NCBI RefSeq assembly: GCF_048403405.1
Contig: NZ_CP183129.1
Reading direction: 5' to 3' (one strand)
Origin: Escherichia coli
Lineage (GTDB): Bacteria > Pseudomonadota > Gammaproteobacteria > Enterobacterales > Enterobacteriaceae
DNA: 64,000 nucleotides
The notes under the pieces were generated by a model, which had not been told where the DNA came from, made no database searches, and saw only the letters and a list, made by a program, of their open reading frames with translations. The translations under genes and the position numbers were made by a program. Of the stretch, positions 25,914 to 64,000 are shown piece after piece; positions within the stretch are counted from its first letter, which is position 1, and every line of letters starts with the position of its first letter.

Positions 25914-25960
25914 TTAACAGCTAACTCATAGCAAATCATTCCTATTCAGATGCCAACTCA

Positions 25961-25992
25961 ACCCTCTGTTTTTGCAGAGGGTTTTTGTTTTT
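25961..25992 (+). terminator. rho-independent terminator of guaBA
   Basis: ccctctg-loop-cagaggg hairpin followed by tttttgttttt. Confidence 0.8.
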
Positions 25993-26105
25993 ATGTATTC
26001 ATTTCTATTCACTCTACACCATATTTTTCGGCGGTACAGGTGACGGTATTACCTTAAAGGTATACTCTCATACCGTCATGAAAATGGTTTCTATACGGGT
26101 GAATT

Positions 26106-27356
26106 GTGCTTACCGATACAAAATTAAAAAACCTCAAGCCGCAGGACAAACTGTACAAGGTCTCCGATCGTGACGGGCTGTATGTAGCTGTGCTTACGTC
26201 AGGCACGGTCTCGTTTCGCTATGACTACCGTATCAACGGTCGCCGCGAAACACTGGTAATCGGGCAGTATGGGCGTGACGGTATCAGCCTGGCAGAAGCG
26301 CGAGAAGAACTGATTGCTGCAAAGAAGCTGCTTAAAGCAGGCCAGTCACCGGCTGCGGCTAAACGTGACGGTATCAAAAAGATTCGTGGTGCCGAGACGT
26401 TTGCGGTACATACCGACAGTTATATGAAACATGTCATCCTGGCTGACAGTACCCGCGCAATGAAGCAGGCGGTGATCGACCGTGACATACTTCCGGTTCT
26501 TGGCAACAAAATGATGACTGAAATTACCACATCGATGGTTCGTGATTTGTGTGACCGGATTGTCGAACGCGGTGGTCGGGCAACAGCAGTGCAGGCCAGG
26601 GAGATCATCAGCAGCGTATACCGTCACGCCAATGACCGTGGTCATGGTTTGTTTAATCCTGCGGCTGACATTAAACCTTCGTCTATCGCCATATTTAAAC
26701 CACGAGAGCGAACACTGACGCCAGAAGAAATTGGCCTGTTCTTCCGCACGCTGGATGCCATTGGTGCTATGGGCACTATGAAAATGGCTTTAAAGCTGGT
26801 GCTTATCACTATGGTTCGTAAAGGCGAATTCACCAATGCAACGTGGGACGAAATAGATTTTAAAAAATGGACATGGACAATTCCTTCAGACCGCATGAAG
26901 GGAAGCCGGGCGCATGTTATTTACCTGCCTAAACAGGCACAGGATATATTGGTCGGGTTGCAGATGTGCGCTGGTGGAAGTGAATATCTGGTTCCTGGTC
27001 GTTACAACTTCCGGAAGCCATTATCTAATGCCGCGCTGAACTCTCTGATCGACAGAACGGTGAAAATAATAAATGAAGATGGTGAGCATATTCAGGACTT
27101 CACCGTACATGATATGCGCCGTACAGCCAGTACGTTGTTGCATGAGGCTGGTTATCCTTCAGACTGGATTGAAAAGGCTCTGGCACATGAGCAGAAAGGT
27201 GTGCGCGCCGTATATAACAAAGCGGAATACGCCAGACAGCGCGCCTACATGTTGCAGCAGTGGGCCGATATGATTGATTCCTGGATTGACGGGGAGCATA
27301 CGGATCTGATTCCGTTCTCCCCGTCGAAGTTTGAGAAGTGGATGGCGGGAGAATAA
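26106..27356 (+). CDS. int: tyrosine integrase (P4-like family), prophage left end
   Basis: 416-aa ORF, GTG start; N-terminus MLTDTKLKNLKPQDKLYKVSDRDGLY typical of P4-type integrases; C-terminal catalytic region (HDMRRTASTLL...Y). Confidence 0.9.
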   Translation: MLTDTKLKNLKPQDKLYKVSDRDGLYVAVLTSGTVSFRYDYRINGRRETLVIGQYGRDGISLAEAREELIAAKKLLKAGQSPAAAKRDGIKKIRGAETFAVHTDSYMKHVILADSTRAMKQAVIDRDILPVLGNKMMTEITTSMVRDLCDRIVERGGRATAVQAREIISSVYRHANDRGHGLFNPAADIKPSSIAIFKPRERTLTPEEIGLFFRTLDAIGAMGTMKMALKLVLITMVRKGEFTNATWDEIDFKKWTWTIPSDRMKGSRAHVIYLPKQAQDILVGLQMCAGGSEYLVPGRYNFRKPLSNAALNSLIDRTVKIINEDGEHIQDFTVHDMRRTASTLLHEAGYPSDWIEKALAHEQKGVRAVYNKAEYARQRAYMLQQWADMIDSWIDGEHTDLIPFSPSKFEKWMAGE

Positions 27357-27359
27357 CGT

Positions 27360-27554
27360 TTAATAGTTCTGCTGATTTTCTTCCATCTCGGCTTCTGCTG
27401 CCAGTGATTCAATTTTGTCTGCGAATATTGCTGACAGCGTTGCAAATTCAGCATCAGTGACAGCGGGAATTGGAACAAACCTGATCCCGCTGTGTGCAAG
27501 CATGTTTGCAGTTTCAAGGCATTTCCTTAAATCTGCTGGTGATGCCCTGTTCAT
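27360..27554 (-). CDS. small hypothetical protein, translationally coupled to methyltransferase
   Basis: 64-aa ORF (MNRASPADLRK...) whose ATG overlaps the methyltransferase TGA (ATGA overlap). Confidence 0.4.
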   Translation of the reverse strand: MNRASPADLRKCLETANMLAHSGIRFVPIPAVTDAEFATLSAIFADKIESLAAEAEMEENQQNY

Positions 27555-28201
27555 GCTGCACGCTCCCGCCCCTGGTTGTCTGTTGGTGACAGCGGAGCAT
27601 TGCTGAATGCATTTGTTAATTCGGCAATATCCAACGCGTATCCAGGGTGTAGTTGCACTGCCGGGTCTTCGCACTGATTACCCCAAACATCGAAGCCATG
27701 AGACGTCTGGCGGGCGAACAGTTCAATGCGAGAAACATCGCCTAACAATTGCACAAGTTTTTCACGAACAATATCTGGTTTTCTTGAATGCTCAAGCCGC
27801 GGTGCGGTAAATGACTGAACGATCCCTGCATTAATGCGCGTAGGTAGTTTTCCCTTTACTGCAAACAGGCAATCTTCACTATTGGCGCGAGTCATGTGTC
27901 CCATACCCATAACCAGTTTATCTGGTTGTCGACTACCACATTTTATCCACGTGAAGCCCTTCATGGTCATCAGACGGAATCCCCAGACTTCAACAACTTT
28001 TAGTGCTTCGAGTGGTTGTGTTGGCACCCACCACATGGCCAACAGACAGTTTTCATCGGCCAAATCCCACACAGGAAGGCGGCAGATATCCAGCACACTC
28101 ATAACCGGGTATTTAAAACCGGCACCGCGATTACCATCTGCGGCTTTGTCCCGGTATACCCAGGGTGGATCTGCATAGATTAGTGTGTATTTCTTAGTCA
28201 T
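27551..28201 (-). CDS. DNA N6-adenine methyltransferase, MT-A70-like (orphan, no restriction partner seen)
   Basis: MTKKYTLIYADPPWVY... DPPW catalytic motif near N-terminus, ~215 aa; start at ATG 28201. Confidence 0.7.
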   Translation of the reverse strand: MTKKYTLIYADPPWVYRDKAADGNRGAGFKYPVMSVLDICRLPVWDLADENCLLAMWWVPTQPLEALKVVEVWGFRLMTMKGFTWIKCGSRQPDKLVMGMGHMTRANSEDCLFAVKGKLPTRINAGIVQSFTAPRLEHSRKPDIVREKLVQLLGDVSRIELFARQTSHGFDVWGNQCEDPAVQLHPGYALDIAELTNAFSNAPLSPTDNQGRERAA

Positions 28202-28493
28202 AAACCACCCCACAACATCCTATGCCGCTATAGTCGCCACGGCGAAGGCCGTTACCTTTTGTGATACATTGGTCCCTGCGAACCGCGATCCTTGCACGCT
28301 CAACATCACCAGAAGCAACATCCATACACTGAAGCCAAAGGTGGGCGGCAATGCGGAACTGCCCTTTTTTCTCTCTTTCAATCGCGCGTTTTTCGATCTC
28401 TATCGCCGCAGGAGTAACGGCAACAACCTTTGAAGGGCTGCGCATTGAAACCTTGTTCATGTGATATTTTTCAAGTCGGCTTAACTTTCTCAC
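28194..28493 (-). CDS. hypothetical small protein (possible regulator)
   Basis: 99-aa ORF; no confident family assignment; true start may be internal. Confidence 0.35.
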   Translation of the reverse strand: MRKLSRLEKYHMNKVSMRSPSKVVAVTPAAIEIEKRAIEREKKGQFRIAAHLWLQCMDVASGDVERARIAVRRDQCITKGNGLRRGDYSGIGCCGVVYD

Positions 28494-28602
28494 TTAATCC
28501 AACCCTCTCTGAAAATTAATGCCAGCAGATAAAGCCATGCTGAAACAGAGGCCAGGAATAAGTACCATCCTGACCATTTGCTCCAGTGCCTTAGCAGCAC
28601 AC

Positions 28603-28851
28603 TCATTCCGCGTTGCTCACGGGACGATATACACGTTGCTGAACAGGAGGTTTTTTACCCTGGAACTCTGCCGGGCTTGCTGCATGACGTTCATCAAGCC
28701 AACGCTCAACTTCATCACGGTTCCATGCGCAGCGTTTATCGGTGATATACCAGCGTTTAGGAAATTCCCCTGCGCGCTCCATACGGTCGATAGTGCTCCA
28801 TGACAGTGGAACCACCGCCAGGAGTTCCTTCTTACCTAATGCACCTTTCAT
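28603..28851 (-). CDS. AlpA-family phage transcriptional regulator / excisionase-like HTH protein
   Basis: 82-aa ORF with LSWSTIDRMERAGEFPKRW motif typical of AlpA/Xis-type HTH proteins. Confidence 0.65.
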   Translation of the reverse strand: MKGALGKKELLAVVPLSWSTIDRMERAGEFPKRWYITDKRCAWNRDEVERWLDERHAASPAEFQGKKPPVQQRVYRPVSNAE

Positions 28852-28900
28852 AAATACCTCTCTTGGTTGCAGTGCGGCGCGCGTGGCGCCGCGGTGGTGG

Positions 28901-29782
28901 TTACATAGATGTTTCGTTTAATTCTTCCCGACGAACGCTGTAAACGTCGGTGGCTTTTGCCAGCAGTTCGTCATCATCTGAAAGTTTTTGTGCAATGTAT
29001 TTGTAAGCCTTATCCAGTTCGGAGACAGTGCTGTAATTCATCGCTGCGCTGGTAAAGGCCATCAGCATTTCTTCTGGATCACGGCTATCCGCTTTACGCG
29101 TTTGCTCATCAGGCTTTTTCACTGGTTTAGCGTTGATCAGACTGTTCATTCCCGCAGCAGTAGTTGTTTGCGGAGTAATGTCTCGCTCAACGCGCGGTGC
29201 CGTTTCCTGTAATTCGTCAGGGGTGTAAACACCGAGAAGTACATCAGGAGCGTGCAGGCGAGCCCATCGTTTCGTGCAAAGATAGGCAAGTTGCTGGCGC
29301 GGATCCTGTTCCCACAATGGAGAGTTACGCACTCCGGCTTGCGCCATACTGATGGTAAGCTCACGGGGTTCTGCTTCTCCTTTAAGAACTGCTGACACAG
29401 TTACCGTCAGATTCGGTGATTTATCTGTTTTGCCGTTAACATTCGACCAGTCACCGCTCCAGCGATAATTCAGGCGTGTCGCTAGCAGGCTGGAAGAGGA
29501 TACGACCGCGTTTACCAACTGTGCTTCGTAGCCTAACGTTCCGTTTACCACATGCGTTTTCTGCGCCACGGCGAAAGGGTTCATTCCCCACTGTGCCGCC
29601 TGCATGGTCACCGCCAGGCAATCGGCAGGTTTGCCTTCAAGATGTTTCGGCACAGTCGCTTTGCTTTGTGACATCAACTCCGCGAAACGCACCAGTTGAT
29701 TCATGCCCTCGGGGCTGAAGATTGCCGCAGCAGTGCCTACAGTTGCGCCTGGTTGTGATGTGATTGCGATATCATTGCTCAT
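28901..29782 (-). CDS. RecT/Redbeta-type single-strand annealing protein (probable)
   Basis: 293-aa ORF directly downstream of and 4-bp overlapping an exonuclease gene; composition and size of RecT-like SSAPs. Confidence 0.6.
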   Translation of the reverse strand: MSNDIAITSQPGATVGTAAAIFSPEGMNQLVRFAELMSQSKATVPKHLEGKPADCLAVTMQAAQWGMNPFAVAQKTHVVNGTLGYEAQLVNAVVSSSSLLATRLNYRWSGDWSNVNGKTDKSPNLTVTVSAVLKGEAEPRELTISMAQAGVRNSPLWEQDPRQQLAYLCTKRWARLHAPDVLLGVYTPDELQETAPRVERDITPQTTTAAGMNSLINAKPVKKPDEQTRKADSRDPEEMLMAFTSAAMNYSTVSELDKAYKYIAQKLSDDDELLAKATDVYSVRREELNETSM

Positions 29783-30600
29783 ACGTACATATCCTGTTTA
29801 CGTGCCCAGTCAGGGCGTTTAATAATTTCCACTCCGCCCCATTCATCGTTGATGCGGCATTCGTGATAGGTATTCAGATCCCGGCGGAACAGAGCGTGCC
29901 CGGCATCGACATCTGGCGCATCCAGCTCGAACACGCGTACCGGATACCGACCACAATCAATGCTTTCGCTCACGGCAAGAAAGAAAAAACCATGCGGCTG
30001 ACCAGTAACCCTCATTGCGCCTTCGCGGTACATTGCGTCCTGCACGTGGTAGCGGAATTCCTCGATGTGGCGTGCAAAACGGTCCATATCTGCAACCTTT
30101 TTCACGTCGACGATCACGTTGTGCTCGTTCAGCCATTTGTCTGGACGAATTCGGCACAACTCACCCGTCTCTTCATCATTCCAGTACATTGATGCTTCGC
30201 AGTAACCAGGTGCTTCCAGCATCCAGCGTGCCGCCGGGTGAGCCATTGCGCTATCACGCATCAGCTCCAGTTTCCGCCACTGCTCGGCATCAAGTACCGT
30301 AATCCCCATATCCGCCACATCACGAAGAAATGCCTCTTCGTCAGCTTTACCTTGTTTCGTCCGACGATCGAATTTCGGTGAAACAATGAAGCGTTTGTCG
30401 AACTCTCCAGGCTCCAGAAGCAGACAGTGCAATGCGGTTCCCATATCCAGTGCAGACTTTTTCTCTTCGTCTTCTGGTGCTGCCTGAACCCATTTAAGAA
30501 GCGCCGGATTCTTGGCAACCATGTCTAGTTGCGACTTACTCACTCCGTCACCGGCGTGGTAGTCTTCGTTGCTGATGTCGAAATAAATTCCCGGTTTCAT
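29779..30600 (-). CDS. PD-(D/E)XK exonuclease (YqaJ/RecE-like)
   Basis: 273-aa ORF with D...E.K-type nuclease core (VIVDVKK); paired with the SSAP gene. Confidence 0.65.
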   Translation of the reverse strand: MKPGIYFDISNEDYHAGDGVSKSQLDMVAKNPALLKWVQAAPEDEEKKSALDMGTALHCLLLEPGEFDKRFIVSPKFDRRTKQGKADEEAFLRDVADMGITVLDAEQWRKLELMRDSAMAHPAARWMLEAPGYCEASMYWNDEETGELCRIRPDKWLNEHNVIVDVKKVADMDRFARHIEEFRYHVQDAMYREGAMRVTGQPHGFFFLAVSESIDCGRYPVRVFELDAPDVDAGHALFRRDLNTYHECRINDEWGGVEIIKRPDWARKQDMYV

Positions 30601-30896
30601 GCCGCGTCCCTCTGTCCATCAAGCTGATCCGCCAGATCCCAGCGGGCGATAATTGCCATTGCCTCTCGCCGGTAGGCATCCATCAGTTCTTCGAACTCAG
30701 GGCTGTCTTTAGCAGCCTCCAGTACTTCCTGACGAACGCCTTTGCCTGTTACAACGTCGAAAGTTGAGGACAGTTGATGAAGTCGGATGCTCTCAATCAG
30801 TTCAACTTGTCGGTCATATAGCTGTTCTGACAGGCGGTAGTCCTTGTCGAATGCCAGCATGATTTTTTGAAGATTTTTCTGCTGATTAACGTTCAT
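30597..30896 (-). CDS. hypothetical early-left protein
   Basis: ORF overlapping the exonuclease start; start likely ATG 30896 (MNVNQQ...). Confidence 0.45.
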   Translation of the reverse strand: MNVNQQKNLQKIMLAFDKDYRLSEQLYDRQVELIESIRLHQLSSTFDVVTGKGVRQEVLEAAKDSPEFEELMDAYRREAMAIIARWDLADQLDGQRDAA

Positions 30897-31070
30897 TATC
30901 AGCCCTCCCATATCTCGTTATCGTTGGCCACATCGCGAGCTTCTTTGCTGACGAAAGCCCACTTAATGCCTTCCTGTAAGGTGCGGAACTTCCAGCTCAT
31001 GAATCCGCATGCAGTAACGCAGTACCAACCGTTGATGATTTTCCACTGCATAACTTGTTACCTCGGTCTG

Positions 31071-31147
31071 TTACCGTTGAGGTAATGATTATGCGTATCT
31101 GGTTTGATGTCAATAGATATGAGTTAAAAAAATTACCCAACAGGTAA
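31071..31147. promoter_or_regulatory. OL-like operator pair: two perfect TTACC-N5-GGTAA palindromes
   Basis: TTACCGTTGAGGTAA at 31071-31085 and TTACCCAACAGGTAA at 31133-31147, between the repressor terminator and the leftward early genes. Confidence 0.55.
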
Positions 31148-31155
31148 TCTAACAG

Positions 31156-31184
31156 GCAATAAAAAAGCCGCCATGAGGCGGCTT
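31156..31184 (-). terminator. rho-independent terminator downstream of repressor gene
   Basis: aagccgcc-atga-ggcggctt hairpin with a run of A on + strand (U-tract on - strand). Confidence 0.65.
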
Positions 31185-31204
31185 ACTTGCTGAAAACTAT
31201 AGTT

Positions 31205-31789
31205 TTATTGTTTGTTTTTTTCGTTCTGGTTGATGACAAATTCAATGTAACTTTCGATCTTTGCTTTCTCGGTTTCGGGTAACAATGCGTAGCGCGAGCG
31301 GTCATAGTTGATAGTCGCAGGGTCGTGCGGGTGAATCAGTAATTCATAGCCATGACGCCCGAATGCGGATGCAACATTCTCCAGGGTGGAAATGGAAACG
31401 CTGACCTCATTGTTTAACAGGCGGCTGATTGTCACCTGGGCGACGCCGGATGCGCGGTGTAGTTTTCCCTGCGTTGAAAGGTCGCGGCTTTCGCTCATCC
31501 AGCGTTCCAGGTTGTGAGCAGCCAGCTGACCTATATCACTCGGGCCGACAGGCTGAAAACCTTCCTGAGAAAGCGAGCGATCGATATCAAGCCAGTTACG
31601 GGGTTTATTGGCGGCAGCTTCAATTTTTCGCGCAACCTGGTCGCCGATAACCTTCTTGCCAAGAGCCCAGCGGTTTACCAGATTTGCCTGAGTTCCAAGT
31701 TTTTCTGCCATCCGCGTCTGAACACCATTGAATTCACGGTCGATCAAGTCGTTGAGATTTTGCCTGCGGACGTCCTGGATACTTTTCAT
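31205..31789 (-). CDS. prophage repressor candidate, tandem HTH (XRE-type), no LexA-like peptidase domain
   Basis: 194-aa ORF divergent from cro-like gene; two HTH-like segments (TRMAEKLGTQANLVNRWALGKK and ASGVAQVTISRLLNNE); no Ser-Lys autocleavage domain recognisable. Confidence 0.65.
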   Translation of the reverse strand: MKSIQDVRRQNLNDLIDREFNGVQTRMAEKLGTQANLVNRWALGKKVIGDQVARKIEAAANKPRNWLDIDRSLSQEGFQPVGPSDIGQLAAHNLERWMSESRDLSTQGKLHRASGVAQVTISRLLNNEVSVSISTLENVASAFGRHGYELLIHPHDPATINYDRSRYALLPETEKAKIESYIEFVINQNEKNKQ

Positions 31790-31844
31790 TTTCTGGAAAA
31801 TCGCCTCATATATGAATCAGTAGATGATTCAATTTAAAGCAATA

Positions 31845-31908
31845 TTACCCAACAGGTAAATGCACCTCATAGGTAACTATCCTTGATTTTTGTTACCTTA
31901 TGGGTGAA
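31845..31908. promoter_or_regulatory. OR-like operator cluster: one perfect and two imperfect TTACC-N5-GGTAA sites
   Basis: TTACCCAACAGGTAA 31845-31859 (identical 15-mer to OL site), gCACCTCATAGGTAA 31862-31876, TTACCTTATGGGTgA 31894-31908, between repressor and cro-like starts. Confidence 0.55.
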
Positions 31909-31943
31909 TATTTATTATCTGAAATAAATATCAGGCAATAGCT

Positions 31944-32174
31944 ATGAGCGATAACGGACATTTCGATTTCAAAAAGCACTGGCTTGCACTTACTCCGGAC
32001 GAGCGTGAAGCCTTCGCACAGGAAGCCGGAACGACGAGTCACTATATCCAGACTCACTTAACAGGTAAGCGCAAAATGCCAGGTAAGGTATTGATGGATG
32101 GGCTTTTTAAAGCCTGTAAAACAAGACAATGGCTGCGCTCAAAAGCAGAACTGGCATACTTCTTCTACTCATGA
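31944..32174 (+). CDS. Cro-like DNA-binding protein
   Basis: 76-aa ORF divergent from repressor across the operator cluster. Confidence 0.6.
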   Translation: MSDNGHFDFKKHWLALTPDEREAFAQEAGTTSHYIQTHLTGKRKMPGKVLMDGLFKACKTRQWLRSKAELAYFFYS

Positions 32175-32196
32175 TATCCAGCTACAACCCTCTGTA

Positions 32197-32220
32197 GACC
32201 GCCACCCGGCGGTCTTTTCA
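32197..32220 (+). terminator. rho-independent terminator after cro-like gene (tR1-like position)
   Basis: gaccgcc-accc-ggcggtc followed by ttttca; imperfect operator gTACCTCAAAGGTAA follows at 32230-32244. Confidence 0.6.
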
Positions 32221-32340
32221 TATCTATTCGTACCTCAAAGGTAATAAAAAACCAAATCTGGTTGATCAAATTTTCCAATTGTGCAAAAATAGCCAATATC
32301 AATAACAAAAAGGTGCGGAAAAATTGAAGATAGTAACCAG

Positions 32341-32536
32341 AATGGAGGCCGCAAAAGCCGGGTTAAATCGCTATTTCACAGGAAAGCGGTGCCGTCACGG
32401 CCATCTCTCTGAAAGGTATGTTCTGAACGGAACATGTGTTGAATGTGCAATGAATAGCGCCAACCGCCATCGTAATGAATTTGCTTGTGCACTAAAGAGT
32501 GCAAGAGGGGAAACCTATGGCAAGCAGCTGGATTAA
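32341..32536 (+). CDS. small zinc-binding protein in cII-like position
   Basis: About 65 aa from ATG 32341 with CRHGH...CVEC cysteines; between cro-like and O-like genes. Confidence 0.4.
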
Positions 32537-33347
32537 GGTTGAAGTTATCACTCCTGATAAACCTGAAATTTTTCAGATAGCAGAAATTCTGGGTATTGAT
32601 CCAGATGCTGTTCTTGGAAAGCTGGTTCGTATATGGGCATGGGCTGACCAGCAAACAATAGACGGTAACGCTGGCAGCGTTACAAAAGGAGTACTTGATA
32701 GACTCGCTTTTATTACAGGATTTGCTGACGCCCTCATTAGCGTCGGATGGCTTGCTTATCATGACGGCAAACTAATTCTTCCAAACTTTGAGCGACACAA
32801 TGGAGAATCATCGAAAAAACGTGCACTTACGAATAGAAGAGTGGCAGAGCATCGAAAACGAGTAACGCAAAAAGTAACGCCAACAGCGTTACAAAAGGAG
32901 TTACCAGAGGAAGAGGAAGAGGAAGATATATATAAAACCCCACACATAGCGCACGTGCGCGAGAGTGCTCCGACCAGTGAGTCGAGTGGTACGCCGTTGC
33001 AGGCAGCAGAACCTGCATCCCTGGATGGCCTGAGTGAACCCATCGGGAAATTTCCGATGACCGATGGCTGGCATCCGTCGCCGGATTTTCGACGGCGTGC
33101 TGCGCTGTGGGGAACGGCCCTGCCGGAACCGGAATTTACACCTGCTGAACTTGCTGCATTCCGGGATTACTGGATGGCTGAGGGCAAAGTGTTCACGCAG
33201 GTTCAGTGGGAACAAAAATTCGCCAGGCACGTAAATCATATCAGGGGAAAATCAAAAAACGCCGGGAAAAGCGATGAGCTTGACTGGAATAACACTGACT
33301 GGATAGAAGGGGTGTGGGATGAAATCAACTCCAGAACTTCTCAATGA
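32517..33347 (+). CDS. replication initiation protein (lambda O-like position)
   Basis: 276 aa from ATG 32517; acidic linker EEEEEEDIY; immediately upstream of and overlapping a clear lambda P homolog. Confidence 0.55.
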
Positions 33348-34095: not shown

Positions 34096-34132
34096 TACCA
34101 GCGCGATAGCGCATTTTTTTACGCCTTGATAA

Positions 34133-34209
34133 TTACCTGCAGGGTAACAAAATATTCTAAACTCTATTGATTTCGTGTCTTATGTGGTTTTTAATTACCT
34201 CAGAGGTAA
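34133..34209. promoter_or_regulatory. two perfect TTACC-N5-GGTAA palindromes upstream of the 34213 gene
   Basis: TTACCTGCAGGGTAA 34133-34147 and TTACCTCAGAGGTAA 34195-34209; the second overlaps the RBS; ATGTGGTT motif at 34181-34188. Confidence 0.5.
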
Positions 34210-34212
34210 ATC

Positions 34213-34557: not shown

Positions 34558-34609
34558 ATCGACGATCTTTTTAGTTATCAATGTAATCAATAAGTTATGT
34601 GGATAAGCG

Positions 34610-35763: not shown

Positions 35764-35765
35764 CG

Positions 35766-37870: not shown

Positions 37871-37920
37871 CATGTCACGAGTAGATTATGCATGATGAAT
37901 TTGATGGGTTTTGAATACTG

Positions 37921-56559: not shown

Positions 56560-57411
56560 ATGAAAAAAATAAATTTGTTTTTTGGCATAGTGCTTTCAAT
56601 AGTCTCTGTAAATCCTACAGCTGCCAGTTCATTGCAATGCAATAAGGATAACTTTGATGCATGCAAAACGTGCGAACAATTATCAAAGGCTATCGACTTA
56701 AAAGAACCTAATCGTGGCGATTACTATAGAGGGGCTTTATGGAATGGGCTTTACGCCTCTTATGTAATTAATTGCCCTGTGGTTGCAGAGAAGTTACTGA
56801 GCCATGGTGCTATACCATCATATGGCGGATATATGGGGTCTATGGGGGCGGTTCTGACAGGAAAATGGCCTCATAACAATGAATCAATAAATCTTTCATG
56901 GGCAGATTTGCTTATAAAACATGGATTTGATGTTAATAGGCATACGGGGAATTATAAATCAGCTACTGAAGTATGGGCTATAGATAAAAAACAGATTGAA
57001 TATAAGTCAGTTTTTGACAAGTTAATTCAATCCAGCGAAGTAAAACCACTCGATCCTTCAAGAAATTTAGAATGGTGTGCGTCTGAAGGGTATCGCTCAG
57101 TTGTCGTTTATTCCCTTAACTCATGTATAGAAAATGCTATAAAACGTTTGGATGACGGTGTTTCTTCAGCGTCTGATATTTCATCAGCAGCCGTAAATTC
57201 CTGTACTAGCGATGTAGAAAATTTCAATAAGCATTTGGCATGCAAAGCAGCTGTTAAAGAAAACTCTGATAAAGAGAGAAGCAACGTTTACCAGTTATTA
57301 ACCAGTGATAGTCAAATGAATAAAAATGTTATTGATATGCTGAAGGAAAGAAATATTGAAACGGTTCTTGAATTTAGAGCTGAAAATCGATCAGCGAAAA
57401 CTGCACAGTGA
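56560..57411 (+). CDS. secreted moron protein, low GC, possible ankyrin-like repeats
   Basis: 283-aa ORF with signal peptide MKKINLFFGIVLSIVSVNPTAAS; markedly AT-rich relative to flanking late genes; weak ankyrin-like segments (VAEKLLSHGA, ADLLIKHGFDVN). Confidence 0.55.
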   Translation: MKKINLFFGIVLSIVSVNPTAASSLQCNKDNFDACKTCEQLSKAIDLKEPNRGDYYRGALWNGLYASYVINCPVVAEKLLSHGAIPSYGGYMGSMGAVLTGKWPHNNESINLSWADLLIKHGFDVNRHTGNYKSATEVWAIDKKQIEYKSVFDKLIQSSEVKPLDPSRNLEWCASEGYRSVVVYSLNSCIENAIKRLDDGVSSASDISSAAVNSCTSDVENFNKHLACKAAVKENSDKERSNVYQLLTSDSQMNKNVIDMLKERNIETVLEFRAENRSAKTAQ

Positions 57412-57418
57412 TCAAACA

Positions 57419-57442
57419 GGCCGCTTTCGCGGCCTTGTTTTT
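57419..57442. terminator. terminator hairpin (ggccgctttcgcggcc + T-run), copy 1
   Basis: ggccgctttcgcggcc followed by ttgttttt; identical hairpin recurs at 60670. Confidence 0.7.
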
Positions 57443-57601
57443 AACGAATGCCACCGCCGCCAGGGCGGGAATCCGCAGAACGCCCACCGCAGCGGGAGCC
57501 GTCAGCGGCAGTATCGCTGTCGTGCTGACAACGACCGGCAAAGGCCTGAGTTGAAGCTACCAGAGACAACAAAACGAACAGTGCAGCAAATGCTTTTTTC
57601 A
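57441..57601 (-). CDS. small secreted peptide (hypothetical)
   Basis: 53-aa ORF MKKAFAALFVLLSLVASTQA... with signal peptide; short, weak RBS. Confidence 0.3.
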
Positions 57602-57673
57602 TTGTGAAATTTCCATCTATAAGCCACCTCAATGTGGCGTCAATGAGTGTAGCACTGACTTTTGTTTCGTCCA

Positions 57674-57697
57674 CAAAAAAGCCCGCAGCGCGGGCTT
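57674..57697 (-). terminator. rho-independent terminator after small membrane protein gene
   Basis: agcccgc-agc-gcgggct hairpin with A-run on + strand (U-tract on - strand). Confidence 0.6.
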
Positions 57698-57929
57698 ACT
57701 TTTCTTCAGGTTTGTTGTCTTCAGATTTCTTCTTGATGCTTGGTTTTTGTCTAAGACCGAAAATACCAGCCACTGCAACAACTGTACCGATCACTGTGCC
57801 AGCTAGAACTTCATGACCTGTTAAACCTAATAATGTTGCACAAGCTACTGTAAAAATAGTTGCACTCAGGCCAAACCACTGCCCACGTTTATCTCTATTA
57901 ATAGCCCCGTCAAGTGCCTTTTCCTCCAT
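57696..57929 (-). CDS. small two-TM membrane protein
   Basis: 77-aa ORF; hydrophobic segments WFGLSATIFTVACATLLGL and VIGTVVAVAGIFGL; Lys-rich C-terminus. Confidence 0.45.
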   Translation of the reverse strand: MEEKALDGAINRDKRGQWFGLSATIFTVACATLLGLTGHEVLAGTVIGTVVAVAGIFGLRQKPSIKKKSEDNKPEEK

Positions 57930-58169
57930 TTTCTGGCGGTGAGCAAACTCCTTCTCCGTCAGCTGGAAGATGCGTTCGGGGGCATCAGGTAAAATATCCT
58001 GATACCCGCGAAGCAGATAGGGGGAGGAAGCGGACCCTGAAACGCATGGTGAGCGACAACTATCTCCTGAATTTCAGGGCGATCAAGAACTCTTGTGAAG
58101 GCATCTGGGTGTTGAATGATCTCGTTACTTAGCCCTTCCTCAACTTCCTCGAACTCAGTTTCTTCGTTA

Positions 58170-58496
58170 TCACTTGGTTGCCCAATAGATTTTTGCATAT
58201 TTGTCGAAGGACATTCCTTTAGCTTCTGGTTTTCCTCTTGCATTTGAGTTTTTCCCTGTCACTATTGCCCATTTTCCGCCAGCAGGCGCTGCAATTTTTT
58301 TTCCGTTCTTTACTATATATTCAGCATAAACACGATTTTCTGACCGTCTGAGATCGTCTCCGACCATATTCATGTCTCTTGATATAACTTTGACGACAGA
58401 GTCTCGGTTTAAAGCCTTGGCATAGTTGGAGCCAGGAACGATACCCAAAGGGGTGCCAGACTCTATAGCCAGCTCCTTGACATATCTTCTGCTCAT
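58170..58496 (-). CDS. hypothetical protein (possible small DNA-binding protein)
   Basis: 108-aa ORF from ATG 58496 (MSRRYVKELAIESG...); a perfect TTACC-N5-GGTAA site lies 22 bp upstream. Confidence 0.4.
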   Translation of the reverse strand: MSRRYVKELAIESGTPLGIVPGSNYAKALNRDSVVKVISRDMNMVGDDLRRSENRVYAEYIVKNGKKIAAPAGGKWAIVTGKNSNARGKPEAKGMSFDKYAKIYWATK

Positions 58497-58517
58497 ATGA
58501 ACCTCAACCAATCGACT

Positions 58518-58532
58518 TTACCAATCGGGTAA
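58518..58532. promoter_or_regulatory. perfect TTACC-N5-GGTAA palindrome
   Basis: TTACCAATCGGGTAA upstream of the 58496 gene. Confidence 0.5.
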
Positions 58533-58617
58533 TTTTAAACATGAGTATAATGCTTTTAACTGCAACGAGTGTAAACAATTATTGATAATTGTAGGCACAT
58601 CCCTGTGCCGCCGCCCG

Positions 58618-59310
58618 TCAGAAGAACCCTGCTTTGTCGTTGATGTACTCCGCGTGCGTCTGGATATCACGCAGGCATTTGCTCACACCGACGATGTAGC
58701 AGAACATGGTGGTCAACTCCGCCGCCGCGCCCGATACGTCGTGCCCGTCTTCCTGTAACTGGTTTAGCAGATTCATCAGCAGTGAGTTCTCCGTCAGGCC
58801 GAGAACACCAGACGGCGAATGAATCAGGCTGCGGTAGCCGGGCTTCAGTGGGGCGCTGTAGGTTTTGTTCTCTACCTTCATTGCCTGCATCACTGCTGAT
58901 GCTGTGGCGTTGGCTACCTGGTCGGCAACCATCTTTATGCGTTCTTCCTGCGGGAGCGAGTTTTTAATGTAACTTCCGGTGCGGCGGATCTGAGGAAGAA
59001 CCTCACCTGTAACCCATTCAAGAAATCTGAATGCTCTCGTTCCCTCAGTCATTGCCTCTTTGCAACGCAGAATAAGGATGTAGAGACCTGATTCTGAAAC
59101 GATGGATAGTTCTTGTATTCCACCAGGGGTCTGTATTGAATACAGCCCCTTTTTGTTCCAGCCTTTTTTATCAAGTTTTCTCGCTTGTGTAACATCAATA
59201 TTCAAAGCATTGCACACATCTTTGGTGACAAACCAAGGTTCTCCGTCAATCATGAACATACGGATCTGGCAGGATGACTCAAAGGAAAAGATGGAAGGTT
59301 TGGTATTCAT
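58618..59310 (-). CDS. antirepressor, Bro-N domain plus C-terminal antirepressor domain
   Basis: N-terminus MNTKPSIFSFESSCQIRMFMIDGEPWFVTKDVCNALNI is a Bro-N/KilA-N-type signature; C-terminal domain has a paralog at 60693-60950. Confidence 0.7.
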   Translation of the reverse strand: MNTKPSIFSFESSCQIRMFMIDGEPWFVTKDVCNALNIDVTQARKLDKKGWNKKGLYSIQTPGGIQELSIVSESGLYILILRCKEAMTEGTRAFRFLEWVTGEVLPQIRRTGSYIKNSLPQEERIKMVADQVANATASAVMQAMKVENKTYSAPLKPGYRSLIHSPSGVLGLTENSLLMNLLNQLQEDGHDVSGAAAELTTMFCYIVGVSKCLRDIQTHAEYINDKAGFF

Positions 59311-59577
59311 AGCGATCACCTTTGTAGTTAGGTTAATCACCACCGCTGAGACCAATCAGATGGTGGTGAACTGTGCAGAGTTGGTCTTACCGGCTACAAA
59401 GGAACCCGGCGCACCTTTCGGTGCCCCCACACAGCCCACCATAGAATAGGTGCGCTTTACACATAAAAAAACCGCTTATGCGGCATATGTGCCTCTGTAG
59501 TAATCCGGGAGACCAATCCCGGCACTGGATTTTGCCAGTGCCCGATTACTATGGCACAAGAGGAGTGCAATGTAAAT

Positions 59578-59592
59578 TTACCGAAAAGGTAA
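59578..59592. promoter_or_regulatory. perfect TTACC-N5-GGTAA palindrome about 270 bp upstream of antirepressor
   Basis: TTACCGAAAAGGTAA. Confidence 0.5.
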
Positions 59593-59753
59593 TAATAAAT
59601 GCATAACTCACGTTATTTCAACCCTATATGGTTTGATTTATCCCATTTCAGAAAATACCTGCCTATTTTTTTGCCAGTATGCGTATACTTTCGATAGAAT
59701 GTTTACCCTAGAGGTAGTTGGGGGTGCCCGTGAACACGAAGAGAGCTACAGTA

Positions 59754-60173
59754 ATGCAGCATTTGAGGAAATCAGAAAAAAATAAAGACCATGAAATATT
59801 GAGTAAGGCCATTGTTCGGGCTTCCAATAATACTGTTATACCTCATGCTGAAGAGTCTGGACAGAAATTTCTTATTCGGTATTTCACTGAAAATAGTGCA
59901 GTTGAGGAGATTTTAAAACATCAGGGAGGGGAATTTAAATGTGGAAAACTGGCAGATTATGTTCGTCGTGAAACGTCTGAACAAGAAGTATATTATGCTG
60001 ATATTAATCATAAGTCAGGTGTGAAAATTGTAATAGGCTATTACACAACTCCCAAAAATGTTATGCATGAGGTCCCAAAGATGTCCGTCGAGAAATCTCA
60101 TGCAATCTCGCGCAGGATGTTTGCACGCACTGCCGAAGATATGGCTCAGGAGCTCTACGACGATGCTGAATAA
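59754..60173 (+). CDS. hypothetical protein, candidate partner of YafO-like toxin
   Basis: About 140 aa from ATG 59754; stop overlaps the start of the downstream gene (ATGCTGAATAA); low GC. Confidence 0.5.
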   Translation: MQHLRKSEKNKDHEILSKAIVRASNNTVIPHAEESGQKFLIRYFTENSAVEEILKHQGGEFKCGKLADYVRRETSEQEVYYADINHKSGVKIVIGYYTTPKNVMHEVPKMSVEKSHAISRRMFARTAEDMAQELYDDAE

Positions 60174-60668
60174 ATTCCAGGGGTTGGTTCACCCTGGAAT
60201 TTTTGGGAAGGACCCTGAGCTAATACCTATCAAAAACGCGTTCATAGATCACTGGCGCTACGGTCATCATAAGGATTTCGGAAAGGACACTCTGTTTCGG
60301 GATCCACCGAAAGAAATGCTGGAATATCACATACGCCACGTTCACGTAAACATCGGAAACTATACTGACAAGTTTGGTGAGAGCGGTACGGACAATGCTG
60401 GAAAAACTGGGCGTCTGGGAAGAAAGACAAGACCACTAACAAGCATAAAAAGATCCCAACCAGTGACGTGTATGTGATTTATCTGGTCACATCTGAACGC
60501 CATGCCTTCCTTCTGGATTATTGGGATGAACCAGCACATAAGACAGTAGAAATTGACGAGCAGAAGCAAAAATTAGTTGTCGAGTGTGACAGAATTTTGC
60601 GGCTGAAAAAGTTAGAATCCATGCCGCGCGATGCTAGTTTGTGGGACCCAGAATTTTACGACTGTTAA
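60163..60668 (+). pseudogene. YafO-like toxin gene interrupted by a frameshift (or sequencing error)
   Basis: N-terminal part in one frame (to 60477: ...FGKDTLFRDPPKEMLEYHIRHVHV) and C-terminal part in another (60381-60668: ...VYVIYLVTSERHAFLLDYWDEPAHK) both resemble E. coli YafO as I recall it; frames overlap 60381-60477. Confidence 0.45.
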
Positions 60669-60669
60669 T

Positions 60670-60694
60670 GGCCGCTTTCGCGGCCTTTAAATTT
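60670..60694. terminator. terminator hairpin (ggccgctttcgcggcc), copy 2
   Basis: Identical 16-bp hairpin to 57419-57434, followed by tttaaattt. Confidence 0.65.
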
Positions 60695-60950
60695 ACCGGG
60701 TTTGTTTTCGTAATTGTTCGGCACAATAGTCGAGATGTGTTTGCAGATCCCGCATAGACATCTGTGAGCTGGTGACGTAGTTAATCAGTGCAGTCAGTTC
60801 GGCAAGTGGGCCATCGACATTAAATCCATCCTTATCGAGATCCCGGAGTAATTTCATCAAGTGCGATCCCTCCACCAGTGACCTGACGCCTCCCGGCGTG
60901 TGAATCCTTTCGGTAAATCCGTCTTCCAGTGGATAGTGATACTGCTGCAT
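60693..60950 (-). CDS. free-standing antirepressor C-terminal-domain paralog
   Basis: About 85 aa from internal ATG (MQQYHYPLEDG...); shares L..LL..L..DG..V.G..AELT.....Y.......RD.QTH..Y pattern with the C-terminus of the 58618-59310 antirepressor. Confidence 0.5.
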   Translation of the reverse strand: MQQYHYPLEDGFTERIHTPGGVRSLVEGSHLMKLLRDLDKDGFNVDGPLAELTALINYVTSSQMSMRDLQTHLDYCAEQLRKQTR

Positions 60951-61026
60951 CTTATCTTCTCCATGCAATAACTGTATGTTTATACAGTAACAAATAATTT
61001 GTTTGCTATCCAGCACGTTTTGCAAA

Positions 61027-61041
61027 TTACCTGAAAGGTAA
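61027..61041. promoter_or_regulatory. perfect TTACC-N5-GGTAA palindrome between ant-C paralog and tailspike
   Basis: TTACCTGAAAGGTAA; ATGTGGTT motif at 61074-61081. Confidence 0.5.
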
Positions 61042-61145
61042 TATCTATTCGTATTTACAGCCTTTCTATCCATATGTGGTTTTTCAGGTAATAGAATAAC
61101 CAGATATGCGGCGCAACGGGTGCTGCGACTATCTGGAGATTTAAC

Positions 61146-63797
61146 ATGACGGTCTCAACCGAAGTTGACCACAACGAATACACTGGTAACGGAGCTACGA
61201 CATCATTTCCGTATACCTTCCGTATTTTCAAAAAATCCGACCTGGTTGTTCAGGTGTCTGACCTGAACGGGAACGTAACAGAATTGGTTCTGGATACTGA
61301 CTACACAGTAACCAATGCTGGAGGATATAATGGCGGTAATGTAATTCTGTCGAAGGCGTTGGCTAACGGTTATCATATTTCTATATCACGAGAGCTCCCG
61401 GTTACGCAGGATACTGATTTGCGTAATCAGGGTAAGTTCTTCGCTGAGGTACATGAAGACGCGTTCGATAAACTGACAATGCTTATTCAAAAGTGTTTTT
61501 CATGGATGAGGTTAGCACTTATAAAACCAAGCATTCTGGCTAACTATTATGATGCAAAAAATAATAAGATATCAAATCTAGCAAATGCCACTGACAGAAA
61601 CGATGCTGTCAATAAAGGTTATGTTGATGATCTTTTTACTGGAGGTGTAACGCCTACACCTAACAGCGTTAAAAACGATATTTTTACAAATCACCAAAGA
61701 AAGATTGTAGCTACGATGCCGCTTCTTTTTCCTGAATATGATGCGATTATGGCTGCTAACCCGTCAGCAACTTATATGTATCCTCAAGGATTCTGCGTTA
61801 GCGAAGATTTGATATACATCACTTATCCATTTGAGCCTAAACAGACGAATAATGTCGTCGCAGTATTTAACATATCTGGTATTTATCAAGGTTATTTCTA
61901 TGTTCAGGCTGGCGGCCCAGGCTTCGCTGCTGAAGGAATCGTGGTTACGTCAGACTATGGCCCCAAAAAAATGTTTGTTGGTCACACAAACGGAATACTG
62001 CGTGAATTTAATATGGAGGGGGCATTATACGGAAGCAATCTGCCTCTTGTACAAAACCATGATGTTGGATTATTCAACCAGTTCAGCTACAGAAGAGGTA
62101 TATGGCTCGTTGAGCAGAATGCGCCAGAAGTAGGACAGAAAATCACAAGAACTGTACTTGCAGTGTTCGACAGTGGTTTCAATCGCCTGTCAACTATAAC
62201 GCTGCCGTTACATGATGTTGGGTATGTAACTAAAAGCACCTCACCTTATGCGCCTTATTTCAACAAGCGTCAGGGTATTGCGGTAGGTGATAACTACTTT
62301 GTCTGCGGCTATGGCGGCTTCATAGCTGATGGGGCAGGAAGCGCAGGATATAACGAATATCAGGGCAGCAAAGTTTTTAACCCTGACGGTACAAAGCGAA
62401 CTGAATCAATGCTTCATCCTCAGGCCATGATGGATTTAATGAAAGCCGCAGGATTGAACGTCACTCGCATAGAAAATGAAGGCGTTTGTGTTTCTCAGGA
62501 TGGAAAATCCATTTATTCACTTTACATTCATCAGGAAAGAACTGGCTCTGAACCTTACAATTCAGGTTTGGTTATTTTCGAAGATTTCTCCACTGATAAA
62601 GATGCTATCGATTTTACACCTGCATCCAGGCTTTACCGCGGATTTGATATCGATCACGCGAGCATTGGGGTATATCCCCGTAGTGCGAAGGGGATTGTTA
62701 ACCCTGTAGATGGTACGTTGTTCACTAACATGACTGAAATTCTTCGCTATATGCAGGAGATGAGTCAGAAGGCATTTAATTTTTACACAGGGACTGTCAG
62801 CATTGCTGATATATCTGGCGTGGCAATCCCTTCCAGCACATATGTTGAAATACTGAATGCGAATAATCAGACTTTTATAGTCAACTATTATTCATCTGAT
62901 AGTGGTATTAGTTATTTGGTTGCAACTAATCCTTCTGGTGACTTTGTATTTGTGCGCCAGCGACCGGCACAGTGGGCATCTAACTTAACCATTCAGCAAA
63001 ACGCAGATCCTGATACAAACCAATTAAACCGCATCACTGCATCATCATATGCCGGTGCAACTACAAACTCTCAGAAAATATTGGTCCTTGACCAGCAGGC
63101 TACAGCTAGCGCAAATAGCTTGGTATTGGGCGGTAGTTCTTCTGTGTTTAGGTCTGCCACCACGGTGGATATTGCATGCAACAGCGACCCGACAGCATTG
63201 GGAGGAACCATACGCTGGCGGTTTTATGATACAGGTCTTCGCCCGTTTGCTGACAATACCTATAATTTTGGTCAGGCATCGTTTCGTATTAAAGACGCCT
63301 ACTTTGCAAATGCCCCAACCGTTTCATCAGATGCCACGCTGAAAACCAATCCCGAGGCAATATCAGATTTAAGTGAAATGCTTTCTTCTGATAGAGACAG
63401 CATTCTTGATGCCTGGGGCGATATTTCTGTTGTGGCGTATCGATGGCTCGACGCTATATCCATGAAGGGCGATGGTGCCAGATGGCATTTTGGCGTCATG
63501 GCTCAGCAGGTAAGGGATGTATTCTTGGCGCACGGAATTGATGGAACCAGATTTGGCCTTCTTTGCTATGACGAGTGGGATGATATTTTTGAGCCGGTAA
63601 TCGCGACTAAAGAGATTACCGATACGTCTGGTGAGTTGGTCACCGTCGAATATGACACCGGAGAACAGAGGCTGGTTAAAAAAGCGGGTAGTTCATGGGG
63701 TATACGGCCTGACCAGTGCGCTTGGCTTGAGGCTGCATATCAGCGCCGTCGATGCGATCGTATTGAAGAGCGACTCGAACTATTGGAATCAAAATAA
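61146..63797 (+). CDS. tailspike/tail fiber with N-terminal podovirus adaptor domain and C-terminal intramolecular chaperone (peptidase S74-like) domain
   Basis: 883-aa ORF; N-terminus resembles T7 gp17 N-terminal domain pattern; C-terminal ~130 aa resemble self-cleaving chaperone domains of endosialidase-type tailspikes. Confidence 0.8.
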   Translation: MTVSTEVDHNEYTGNGATTSFPYTFRIFKKSDLVVQVSDLNGNVTELVLDTDYTVTNAGGYNGGNVILSKALANGYHISISRELPVTQDTDLRNQGKFFAEVHEDAFDKLTMLIQKCFSWMRLALIKPSILANYYDAKNNKISNLANATDRNDAVNKGYVDDLFTGGVTPTPNSVKNDIFTNHQRKIVATMPLLFPEYDAIMAANPSATYMYPQGFCVSEDLIYITYPFEPKQTNNVVAVFNISGIYQGYFYVQAGGPGFAAEGIVVTSDYGPKKMFVGHTNGILREFNMEGALYGSNLPLVQNHDVGLFNQFSYRRGIWLVEQNAPEVGQKITRTVLAVFDSGFNRLSTITLPLHDVGYVTKSTSPYAPYFNKRQGIAVGDNYFVCGYGGFIADGAGSAGYNEYQGSKVFNPDGTKRTESMLHPQAMMDLMKAAGLNVTRIENEGVCVSQDGKSIYSLYIHQERTGSEPYNSGLVIFEDFSTDKDAIDFTPASRLYRGFDIDHASIGVYPRSAKGIVNPVDGTLFTNMTEILRYMQEMSQKAFNFYTGTVSIADISGVAIPSSTYVEILNANNQTFIVNYYSSDSGISYLVATNPSGDFVFVRQRPAQWASNLTIQQNADPDTNQLNRITASSYAGATTNSQKILVLDQQATASANSLVLGGSSSVFRSATTVDIACNSDPTALGGTIRWRFYDTGLRPFADNTYNFGQASFRIKDAYFANAPTVSSDATLKTNPEAISDLSEMLSSDRDSILDAWGDISVVAYRWLDAISMKGDGARWHFGVMAQQVRDVFLAHGIDGTRFGLLCYDEWDDIFEPVIATKEITDTSGELVTVEYDTGEQRLVKKAGSSWGIRPDQCAWLEAAYQRRRCDRIEERLELLESK

Positions 63798-63894
63798 GAC
63801 CAAATTTAGGTAATTATTATCCGTAAATGGTTTATTGTGTATGATGGACCTCATCTTCTAAGGGGGTTTTTATGCACAATAAACGGTGGTTACC

Positions 63895-64000
63895 ATGAAT
63901 GGCACGGTTACGGCGGATTCACTGAATCAAGGGTTAAGCTTGGGTGCGCTGGCCTCTGTCGTCTACGGCGTTCCGCCAGAGGTGGCTCTCGGTGCTCTGG
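63895..64000 (+). CDS. hypothetical protein, 5' end only (continues beyond window)
   Basis: ATG at 63895 opens a frame (MNGTVTADSLNQGLSLGALASVVYG...) running to the window edge. Confidence 0.3.
   Translation, partial: MNGTVTADSLNQGLSLGALASVVYGVPPEVALGAL

Follow-up and report, generated by a model that had tools for sequence, protein, structure and literature searches.

A prophage of the epsilon15/phiV10 type at the 3′ end of guaA in Escherichia coli

What kind of phage lies downstream of guaA in the E. coli contig NZ_CP183129.1 (RefSeq assembly GCF_048403405.1), and was it put together at this locus from parts of unrelated phages? Here we analyse a 64,000-nucleotide stretch of this contig (hereafter, the window). 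A sequence-only reading had described positions 25914–64000 as a mosaic temperate phage in which a lambdoid early region was joined to a podovirus-type virion module. We conclude with high confidence that 25899–64000 is the left 38.1 kb of a prophage of the epsilon15/phiV10 (Uetakevirus) type, inserted at the 3′ end of guaA, and that integration, a predicted Rep/Ant pair for lysogeny and induction, and a short-tailed virion go together in this one element. That the element is a temperate phage, sits at guaA and has a short-tailed, epsilon15-like virion module is borne out by Pfam, PHROG and Protein Data Bank (PDB) matches and by matches to deposited phages. The element adds one more, apparently intact, member to a prophage type that is well documented, as are its site and its kind of immunity switch; its novelty is limited to the combination of alleles and to an unusual receptor-binding module. 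We would annotate the locus with confidence as an epsilon15/phiV10-type prophage at guaA, a result of little import beyond correct labelling.

In megablast searches of deposited phages, the early half of the element (25900–40000) matched HEMP4, TL-2011b and vB_EcoP_ZX5 at 97–97.7% over 80–83%. The late half (40000–64000) matched EC.W1-9 (PP445227) at 98.3% over 85% and phiV10 (NC_007804) at 96.4% over 49%; phiV10, the O157 typing phages 9 and 10, and phiv142-3 all matched at 96–97% over about half, and the Salmonella phage epsilon15 (NC_004775) was a more distant match. According to database records, phiV10 and epsilon15 are the two named species of the genus Uetakevirus, and EC.W1-9 is unclassified. 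Gene by gene (tblastn), 34 of 51 open reading frames (ORFs) have a counterpart in phiV10, with their order kept; this count is without the staple, adaptor and nozzle genes, which are covered by the unbroken 98.3% match to EC.W1-9. The order common to the window, phiV10, epsilon15 and EC.W1-9 runs from attP and int through a leftward block (DUF1382, MT-A70, PerC, AlpA-type, RecT and exonuclease), the repressor and the rightward replication genes, and on to an accessory block, a small regulator, TerS/TerL, the portal-to-ejection genes, cargo and antirepressor, the tail protein and the lysis genes.

Escherichia phage phiV10 has the same attachment core, an identical repressor, and an operator motif and a LexA box before ant as in the window, and identity with the window is 95–100% for TerS/TerL, the portal, the protease, the capsid, the cement and the small ejection proteins. 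However, its RecT is a different allele (74%), its exonuclease is separate rather than fused, its replication initiator is 46% identical over 29% of the length, and its cargo region and receptor-binding domain differ. EC.W1-9 shares the late region at 98.3% identity, including a pair of large ejection proteins described below, and the cargo at 99.6% over 4.7 kb, but carries a different receptor-binding domain (‘eliminase’, 624 amino acids (aa)) and different accessory early genes. The layout of epsilon15 is the same, with an integrase 87% identical and the same core (PMC9782041), whereas its repressor and capsid are 42% and 43% identical, respectively, and it lacks a homologue of lambda P. A guaA–integrase junction of this kind is present in 451 of 5,426 complete E. 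coli genomes (about 8%), counted where at least 80% of a 7.5-kb guaA–integrase probe was matched.

Attachment site and ends of the prophage

The host gene guaA (GMP synthase) occupies 24336–25913 on the forward strand, as annotated in NZ_OX030728.1 and in agreement with K-12 guaA, and the G+C content is slightly lower past it. A three-way comparison placed the attL core, the 17-bp sequence ATTGAGTGGGAATGATT, at 25899–25915 (forward strand), overlapping the guaA stop codon. No other stretch is common to the junction in the window, the region of phiV10 ahead of int and the unoccupied site of K-12; to its left the window is K-12 sequence and to its right it is phage. The core holds the last four sense codons of guaA (I-E-W-E) and the stop, and lies 190 bp before int. 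Both its sequence and this spacing agree with the published attP of phiV10, epsilon15 and ZX5, attgagtgggaatgatt, which also lies 190 bp before int (PMC9782041). ZX5, for which a short tail and spontaneous induction are reported, was experimentally shown to use the same core for its integration at the guaA 3′ end (PMC9782041), and an insertion of TL-2011b at guaA has been reported as well (PMC3293862). The sequence-only reading had suggested that epsilon15- and phiV10-like phages integrate at guaA, and both this literature and our independently derived core confirm it. It had placed attL probably within 25914–26105, about 15 bp off the core.

The ‘guaA terminator’ of that reading, at 25960–25983 (forward strand; terminator scan), turned out to be phage DNA. 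This rho-independent hairpin is phage-supplied because it is present in packaged phiV10 DNA to the right of the core; its stem is identical to that of the native K-12 terminator and its loop and flanks differ. The native guaA terminator is found at attR in the lysogen E. coli 2/0. Recombination within ATTGAGTGGGAATGATT by a P4-type tyrosine integrase puts the native terminator at attR, and guaA is intact because the phage brings its own copy of the last codons, the stop and a substitute terminator. The exact left boundary makes plain that sequence brought in by the phage preserves both the gene and its terminator function.

The integrase itself (416 aa; 26106–27356, forward strand) is P4-type with an arm-binding domain (PF13356, PF00589 and PF22022) and is 99% identical to phiV10 Int by tblastn. 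Ahead of it, on the P′ arm, two inverted integrase arm-type sites, GTGACGGTAT (26040–26049 and 26070–26079), flank a palindrome, TTACCTTAAAGGTAT, at 26049–26063. A search for the decamer gave 12 matches against 2.7 expected, with further sites inside int at 26275, 26365 and 26618, and GTGACGGTAT is annotated as integrase-binding at equivalent positions in the epsilon15 record.

The right end lies outside the window, as had been supposed: the core occurs once in the window, and in strain 2/0 its second copy lies 1,998 bp past the stop of the tail-protein gene, followed by the native terminator and yfgI. The last 300 bases (63700–64000) are 100% identical to strain 2/0, and by equivalence with that strain the lysis cassette starts at 63895 (63895–64000, forward strand), where the holin start falls at the equivalent base; the window ends within the first holin gene. 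In strain 2/0, the interval from the tail protein to attR contains nothing but two holins, a GH19 endolysin and a DUF2514 spanin. Extrapolating from its spacing, attR should lie near 65795–65811, the whole prophage is estimated at about 39.9 kb, and a tail tube or tape-measure gene beyond 64000 is not expected.

Immunity switch, early genes and operator-type palindromes

The repressor, Rep, is a two-domain protein of 194 aa encoded at 31205–31789 on the reverse strand (Pfam HTH_3). Its residues 1–190 match the repressor of SPC32H, an epsilon15-like Salmonella phage (PDB 5D50_A, E 4e-42), it is 100% identical to phiV10 p40, and an S24 peptidase (autocleavage) domain was absent from it in Pfam searches. 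The small antirepressor Ant (85 aa; 60693–60950, reverse strand) matches SPC32H Ant (PDB 5D50_E, E 1.4e-46). A predicted LexA box, CTGTATGTTTATACAG, which is a consensus SOS box, lies 22 bp upstream of ant (60972–60987, reverse strand) and recurs at the equivalent place in phiV10, epsilon15, EC.W1-9 and two other prophages. The SPC32H mechanism as summarised in PMC9638917 has a tetramer of Rep sitting on palindromic DNA and a tetramer of Ant that breaks Rep up into weakly binding dimers. By homology, lysogeny here would be held by a non-cleavable, two-domain Rep of the SPC32H type bound to TTACC-N5-GGTAA palindromes; DNA damage would free the SOS box of LexA, Ant would be made, and Ant would disassemble Rep. 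SOS induction via LexA-controlled Ant is the best-supported model, which we infer from homology and from the position of the site.

SPC32H and the window have Rep and Ant homologues and a predicted LexA box before ant in common. Beyond SPC32H, the window encodes a second protein with an Ant domain, here fused to Bro-N (58618–59313, reverse strand). The C-terminal 74 residues of this paralogue are 43% identical to small Ant, and its gene stands behind an operator-type site, not a LexA box. Two more CTGT-N8-ACAG matches, with GC-rich centres, lie at 45113–45128, in the gap between the capsid and cement genes, and at 40572–40587, near a tRNA gene; they have equivalents in phiV10 and EC.W1-9 and are probably not LexA sites.

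Allowing one mismatch, the operator motif TTACC-N5-GGTAA has 17 copies in the window, where 1.06 would be expected. All 15 copies within the prophage are non-coding, in an element of which 7.4% is non-coding, and they are spread over ten control regions, most of them just upstream of the start of a gene or operon. Several are overlapped or abutted by sigma-70-like promoters. The leftmost is the one-mismatch copy TTACCTTAAAGGTAT before int, to which the sequence-only reading had drawn attention and which is conserved in phiV10, epsilon15 and EC.W1-9. A chance match was rejected in view of this conservation in three relatives together with the 17-versus-1 enrichment of the motif; lying as it does between arm-type sites, the palindrome may regulate int or may be a mere part of the P′ arm.

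At the leftward early promoter, a pair of operator-type sites 62 bp apart (31071–31085 and 31133–31147) accompanies a sigma-70-like promoter, TTGACA-17-AATCAT, at 31113–31085 on the reverse strand, with a terminator at 31184–31165. Next come two sites in the interval from rep to the rightward early genes (31845–31859 and 31893–31907), the second overlapped by a promoter-like site at 31890–31918 (forward strand), and one more comes after a 76-aa gene. A second pair with 62-bp spacing (34133–34147 and 34195–34209) lies ahead of the accessory early genes, with a promoter-like site at 34126–34153. On the forward strand, a terminator at 37920–37937 precedes two sites, at 37957–37971 and 37975–37989, ahead of the terminase genes, and single sites stand ahead of the structural operon (41102–41116) and between ant and the gene for the receptor-binding protein (61027–61041). 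The cargo region has operator-type sites in two promoter regions, at 58518 and at 59578/59703, which promoter-like sites abut. The 62-bp spacing of both pairs (31071/31133 and 34133/34195) is kept in phiV10, epsilon15 and EC.W1-9 and may reflect looping by a tetrameric repressor.

A dispersed-operator system cannot be claimed as a new discovery, as ATTACC-N5-GGTAAT sites at corresponding positions are already labelled repressor-binding in the RefSeq record of epsilon15, including ahead of the terminase genes, at 2931–2947 (structural operon) and at 19895–19911 (interval between ant and the receptor-binding gene). What it may amount to can be stated as a tentative proposal, which we hold to be possible but doubtful: one repressor would act directly on many transcription units, among them int, the receptor-binding gene, the structural operon and the terminase genes. 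Its targets would be the roughly 15 scattered palindromes, of which some form conserved 62-bp pairs suited to looping by a tetramer. Such a ‘distributed operator’ design, like that of P1 or mycobacteriophages, would replace antitermination in an enterobacterial podophage, and the motif would be kept across repressors that are only 42% identical. Direct repression of many transcription units would stand in for lambda-style N/Q antitermination and would account for the missing Q antiterminator. In lambdoid phages such antitermination controls the delayed-early and late genes; in the window, N and Q families had no match among the early ORFs, and the late operons have operator-type sites of their own. 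Whatever the design, the 15 candidate repressor sites mapped here, along with the LexA box, should be of use for studying this switch.

The early region proper is, judged by its gene families, only loosely lambdoid. Its leftward operon (27360–31051, reverse strand; Pfam) encodes DUF1382, an MT-A70 adenine methyltransferase, PerC, an AlpA-type Xis candidate, RecT, a PD-(D/E)XK exonuclease and two small ORFs, and is collinear with phiV10 p32–p39. The rightward genes (31944–34095, forward strand) comprise the 76-aa ORF in the cro position, a 70-aa ORF, an initiator (282-aa ORF) and a helicase loader of the lambda P family (258 aa). For the 76-aa ORF, which is 99% identical to phiV10 p41, neither Pfam nor NCBIfam gave a family match. 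Of the ‘O/P-like replication’ in the sequence-only reading, the P homologue is clear (PF06992, 1.7e-55), but the ‘O-like’ protein has a DnaT domain (PF17948) and not that of lambda O. The accessory early genes (34213–37870, forward strand; Pfam) include DUF1064, Ead/Ea22, DUF551, DUF4752 and others; the last of them, immediately ahead of the late genes, encodes a 113-aa ‘transcriptional regulator’ (37529–37870, forward strand; phrog_536, 6e-54). The latter had no match in Pfam, PDB or NCBIfam; a Q-like function was considered and dropped, as its PHROG label alone applies, and it is the sole candidate late regulator. N, Q and ‘nin’ families had no match among the early ORFs in Pfam, PHROGs or NCBIfam, and neither a Q family nor a phage RNA polymerase was matched in any ORF scanned, as the sequence-only reading had noted for the latter two. 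The description of a lambdoid early region holds for RecT, the exonuclease, P and Ea22, with DUF551 also in common; it fails for the immunity system, which is of the Rep/Ant type of SPC32H, with no N or Q, and for the ‘nin’ family.

Virion module and receptor-binding protein

The late genes predict a short-tailed virion, with an epsilon15/BPP-1-type capsid with staple and cement, T7-like portal, adaptor and nozzle, ejection proteins and one receptor-binding protein. The ORF sizes listed in the sequence-only reading (559, 330, 201, 823, 191, 915 and 1129 aa, and the tail protein) were all found where it had placed them, and the family and structure matches of the portal, capsid and core proteins fit a short-tailed particle.

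The small and large terminase subunits are encoded at 37989–40057 on the forward strand (PF03592 and phrog_2). The TerS ORF opens at 37911, and its 5′ part contains the terminator and both operator-type sites described above; the true start is probably the ATG at 37989, giving 198 aa, as suggested by the 198–199-aa TerS of EC.W1-9 and epsilon15. With this start, the 224-aa TerS of the phiV10 record would begin too early. The head genes (41206–46307, forward strand; Pfam and PHROGs) encode a 68-aa ORF, the portal, a Bbp19-like protein, a protease, the major capsid protein, a Bbp16 cement protein, a 114-aa ORF and a gp10-type staple. The portal (559 aa; 41427–43106, forward strand) belongs to PF12236 and matches PDB 8CK0 (4e-180). 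The 233-aa ORF taken for a ‘scaffold’ in the sequence-only reading falls instead in a protease family (phrog_458). The major capsid protein (330 aa; 44106–45098, forward strand) belongs to PF20911 (epsilon15 GP7) and matches the capsid proteins of the Bordetella phage BPP-1 (PDB 3J4U, 1.5e-127) and of epsilon15, a phage with structurally characterised virion proteins (gp7, PDB 3J40, 3e-84). The epsilon15-type head families PF20911, PF21628 and PF21190 were found in Pfam, as were PF12236 and PF24072. With BPP-1 the window shares the head module (capsid, Bbp16 cement and a Bbp19-like protein) and that only: host and regulation are different, and the diversity-generating retroelement of BPP-1 was not seen in the window.

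Downstream, all on the forward strand, follow the tail adaptor (201 aa, counterpart of T7 gp11; 46307–46912), which matches the ‘connector’ 8CK1_E (4e-26), and the tail nozzle (823 aa, counterpart of T7 gp12; 46912–49383), which matches the ‘tail nozzle’ 8CK1_A (1.7e-214); their PHROGs are phrog_394, phrog_376 and phrog_9239. Internal virion and ejection proteins of 154, 191, 915 and 1129 aa are encoded at 49383–56558 (forward strand; Pfam and PHROGs, including the internal virion protein family phrog_308). The 191-aa protein (49847–50422, forward strand) is of the T7 gp14 family (PF24072). The two large ejection proteins (phrog_1044 and phrog_342), a transglycosylase-type protein of 915 aa (50422–53169, forward strand) and one of 1129 aa (53169–56558, forward strand), are as a pair 100% identical to those of EC.W1-9. 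By contrast, phiV10 has large ejection proteins of 837, 600 and 824 aa, and epsilon15 also has a three-protein set. In tblastn searches, the 915-aa protein was 44–45% identical to phiV10 and epsilon15 over 55–57% of its length, and the 1129-aa protein had no match in either. A ‘tape measure’ PHROG match of the 915-aa protein covers residues 194–411 only and was rejected as evidence of a long tail because it involves the same stretch as PHROG matches labelled transglycosylase.

The receptor-binding tail protein (883 aa; 61146–63797, forward strand) is built from three parts. Its N-terminal ~165 residues are an epsilon15-type anchor, residues 1–130 matching the 8CK1/Dpo31 anchor in the PDB, and its C terminus is an S74 intramolecular chaperone (PF13884), residues 665–883 matching 3GW6. 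The protein is identical in 882 of 883 residues to that of the strain 2/0 prophage. For the middle part, a large protein database has few relatives, 16 in all, in which it stands on P22-type, T7-type and TSP1-type anchors; the receptor-binding module is ~68% identical in nucleotides to Kayfunavirus tail genes. An AlphaFold model of residues 160–730 (mean predicted local distance difference test (pLDDT) score of 70, mostly above 80 over model residues 21–340) predicts the central domain to be a β-propeller. Its best solved fold matches are the receptor-binding proteins of the Staphylococcus phages phi11, 80alpha and P68 (E ~1e-10), with a template modelling (TM) score of ~0.35 because only part aligns. 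The model indicates that this protein is probably not a β-helix tailspike of the epsilon15/phiV10 kind, and a β-propeller module of the phi11/P68 fold in place of the usual β-helix hints at a different kind of receptor. This module, the alternative pair of ejection proteins and the two frameshifted cargo genes described below set this lineage apart.

Between the tail-protein stop and the holin start lie 97 bp (63798–63894), a gap too short for an O-antigen-modifying gene, and none is present. In this the window differs from phiV10, which carries an O-acetyltransferase gene (oac) after its tail protein, and from epsilon15, which carries serotype-conversion genes; these serotype-conversion and superinfection-immunity genes are absent from the window.

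Cargo, alternative origins and flanking DNA

The cargo region (56560–60668) encodes a signal-peptide protein, small ORFs, a DUF2335 protein, the Bro-N paralogue, a 147-aa ORF and a gene named YafO in relatives. The first, of 283 aa and with a signal-peptide-like N terminus (56560–57411), lies directly after the ejection proteins and is 100% identical to an EC.W1-9 protein, and other genes take its place in the strain 2/0 prophage. It had no match in Pfam, NCBIfam or PADLOC and falls in a PHROG of unknown function. Two genes are frameshifted relative to EC.W1-9, in which both are intact, and to E. coli FDAARGOS_497: the DUF2335 membrane-protein gene (57696–58243, reverse strand), in which a deletion at 58019 has cut a run of six G to five, and the gene called a YafO-family toxin in the NCBI annotation of relatives (60163–60668, forward strand), with a single-base deletion at 60391. 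The toxin name was not reproduced by Pfam. Cargo genes were also considered as defence systems, but PADLOC recognised the MT-A70 methyltransferase only.

Could the element nevertheless be of another origin? If a lambdoid early region had recently been joined to a podovirus virion module, the P, RecT and exonuclease families held in common with lambdoid phages would find an explanation, as would the accessory block at ~34.7–37.6 kb (Ea22, DUF551, DUF4752 and ASCH-type), pieces of which are 90–96% identical in nucleotides to Shiga toxin (Stx)-converting, P22-like (ST104) and HK/mEp phages. However, the lambdoid sharing is confined to such short accessory cassettes, the immunity is of the SPC32H type with no N or Q family found, and phiV10, epsilon15 and EC.W1-9 have the same gene order. 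The join of early and virion regions is therefore old and group-wide, which makes a recent hybrid very unlikely. The ‘mosaic’ of the sequence-only reading is real as a combination, but it is the conserved layout of these relatives and not specific to this locus; to judge from the nucleotide matches, genuine mosaicism sits in the accessory block, the most exchangeable segment. Still less credence can be given to a T7-like (Autographiviridae-type) element turned temperate, a scenario that we discount almost entirely. The portal family PF12236, the T7_gp14 family, the adaptor and nozzle counterparts and a weak Phage_T7_tail match in the tail protein do recall T7, but no phage RNA polymerase was found, the ORFs above 800 aa being nozzle, ejection or receptor-binding proteins, the capsid is of epsilon15/BPP-1 type with staple and cement, and the gene order is that of epsilon15.

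That the element is an epsilon15-like prophage gone cryptic, having lost excision or particle formation, is a less remote alternative, but still an improbable one. It could draw on the two single-base deletions relative to two relatives and on the absence of attR and the lysis genes from the visible sequence. Yet the frameshifts are in cargo genes only, the integration, replication, packaging and structural ORFs are full-length against their homologues in isolated plaque-forming phages, and the sequence at the window end is identical to that of a relative with a complete lysis cassette and attR. Several points nonetheless count against the favoured reading of an epsilon15/phiV10-type prophage. 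With attR and the last ~1.9 kb outside the window, completeness is judged from one close relative, and the frameshifted cargo genes could be decay (pseudogenes) or homopolymer read errors. Binding of Rep at the 15 sites is predicted, the epsilon15 sites are database annotations, and heteroimmune phages would not usually share one operator motif, as the epsilon15- and phiV10-type repressors, only 42% identical, would do here. The named members of the genus are also only modestly similar in nucleotides: measured in one direction for the 38.1 kb in the window, the similarity is 0.59 to phiV10 and 0.33 to epsilon15, and the entire element is not covered by any single deposited phage, EC.W1-9 being the best at 0.81. 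The usual guide of the International Committee on Taxonomy of Viruses for a genus is ~70% nucleotide similarity over the genome, although by this one-directional measure accepted members may differ among themselves by more than the window does.

A tRNA-Arg gene (anticodon TCT) was detected by ARAGORN at 40703–40779 on the reverse strand and is also annotated in related prophages and phages. An 83-aa ORF in 40522–40779, hypothetical in phiV10, overlaps it on the opposite strand; the NCBI annotation of a related prophage keeps the tRNA only.

The host flank, together with the left end of the prophage (window positions 1–28192), is 99.84% identical to NZ_OX030728.1 without a gap. Annotation transferred from that genome places guaB at 22801–24267 and, at ~9831–21203, sinH (an intimin-like inverse autotransporter), a sinI-family gene and an 8-kb adhesin island between yfgJ and xseA. 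These two genes are adjacent in K-12, and the G+C content of the window dips to 0.44–0.46 at 9–11 kb.

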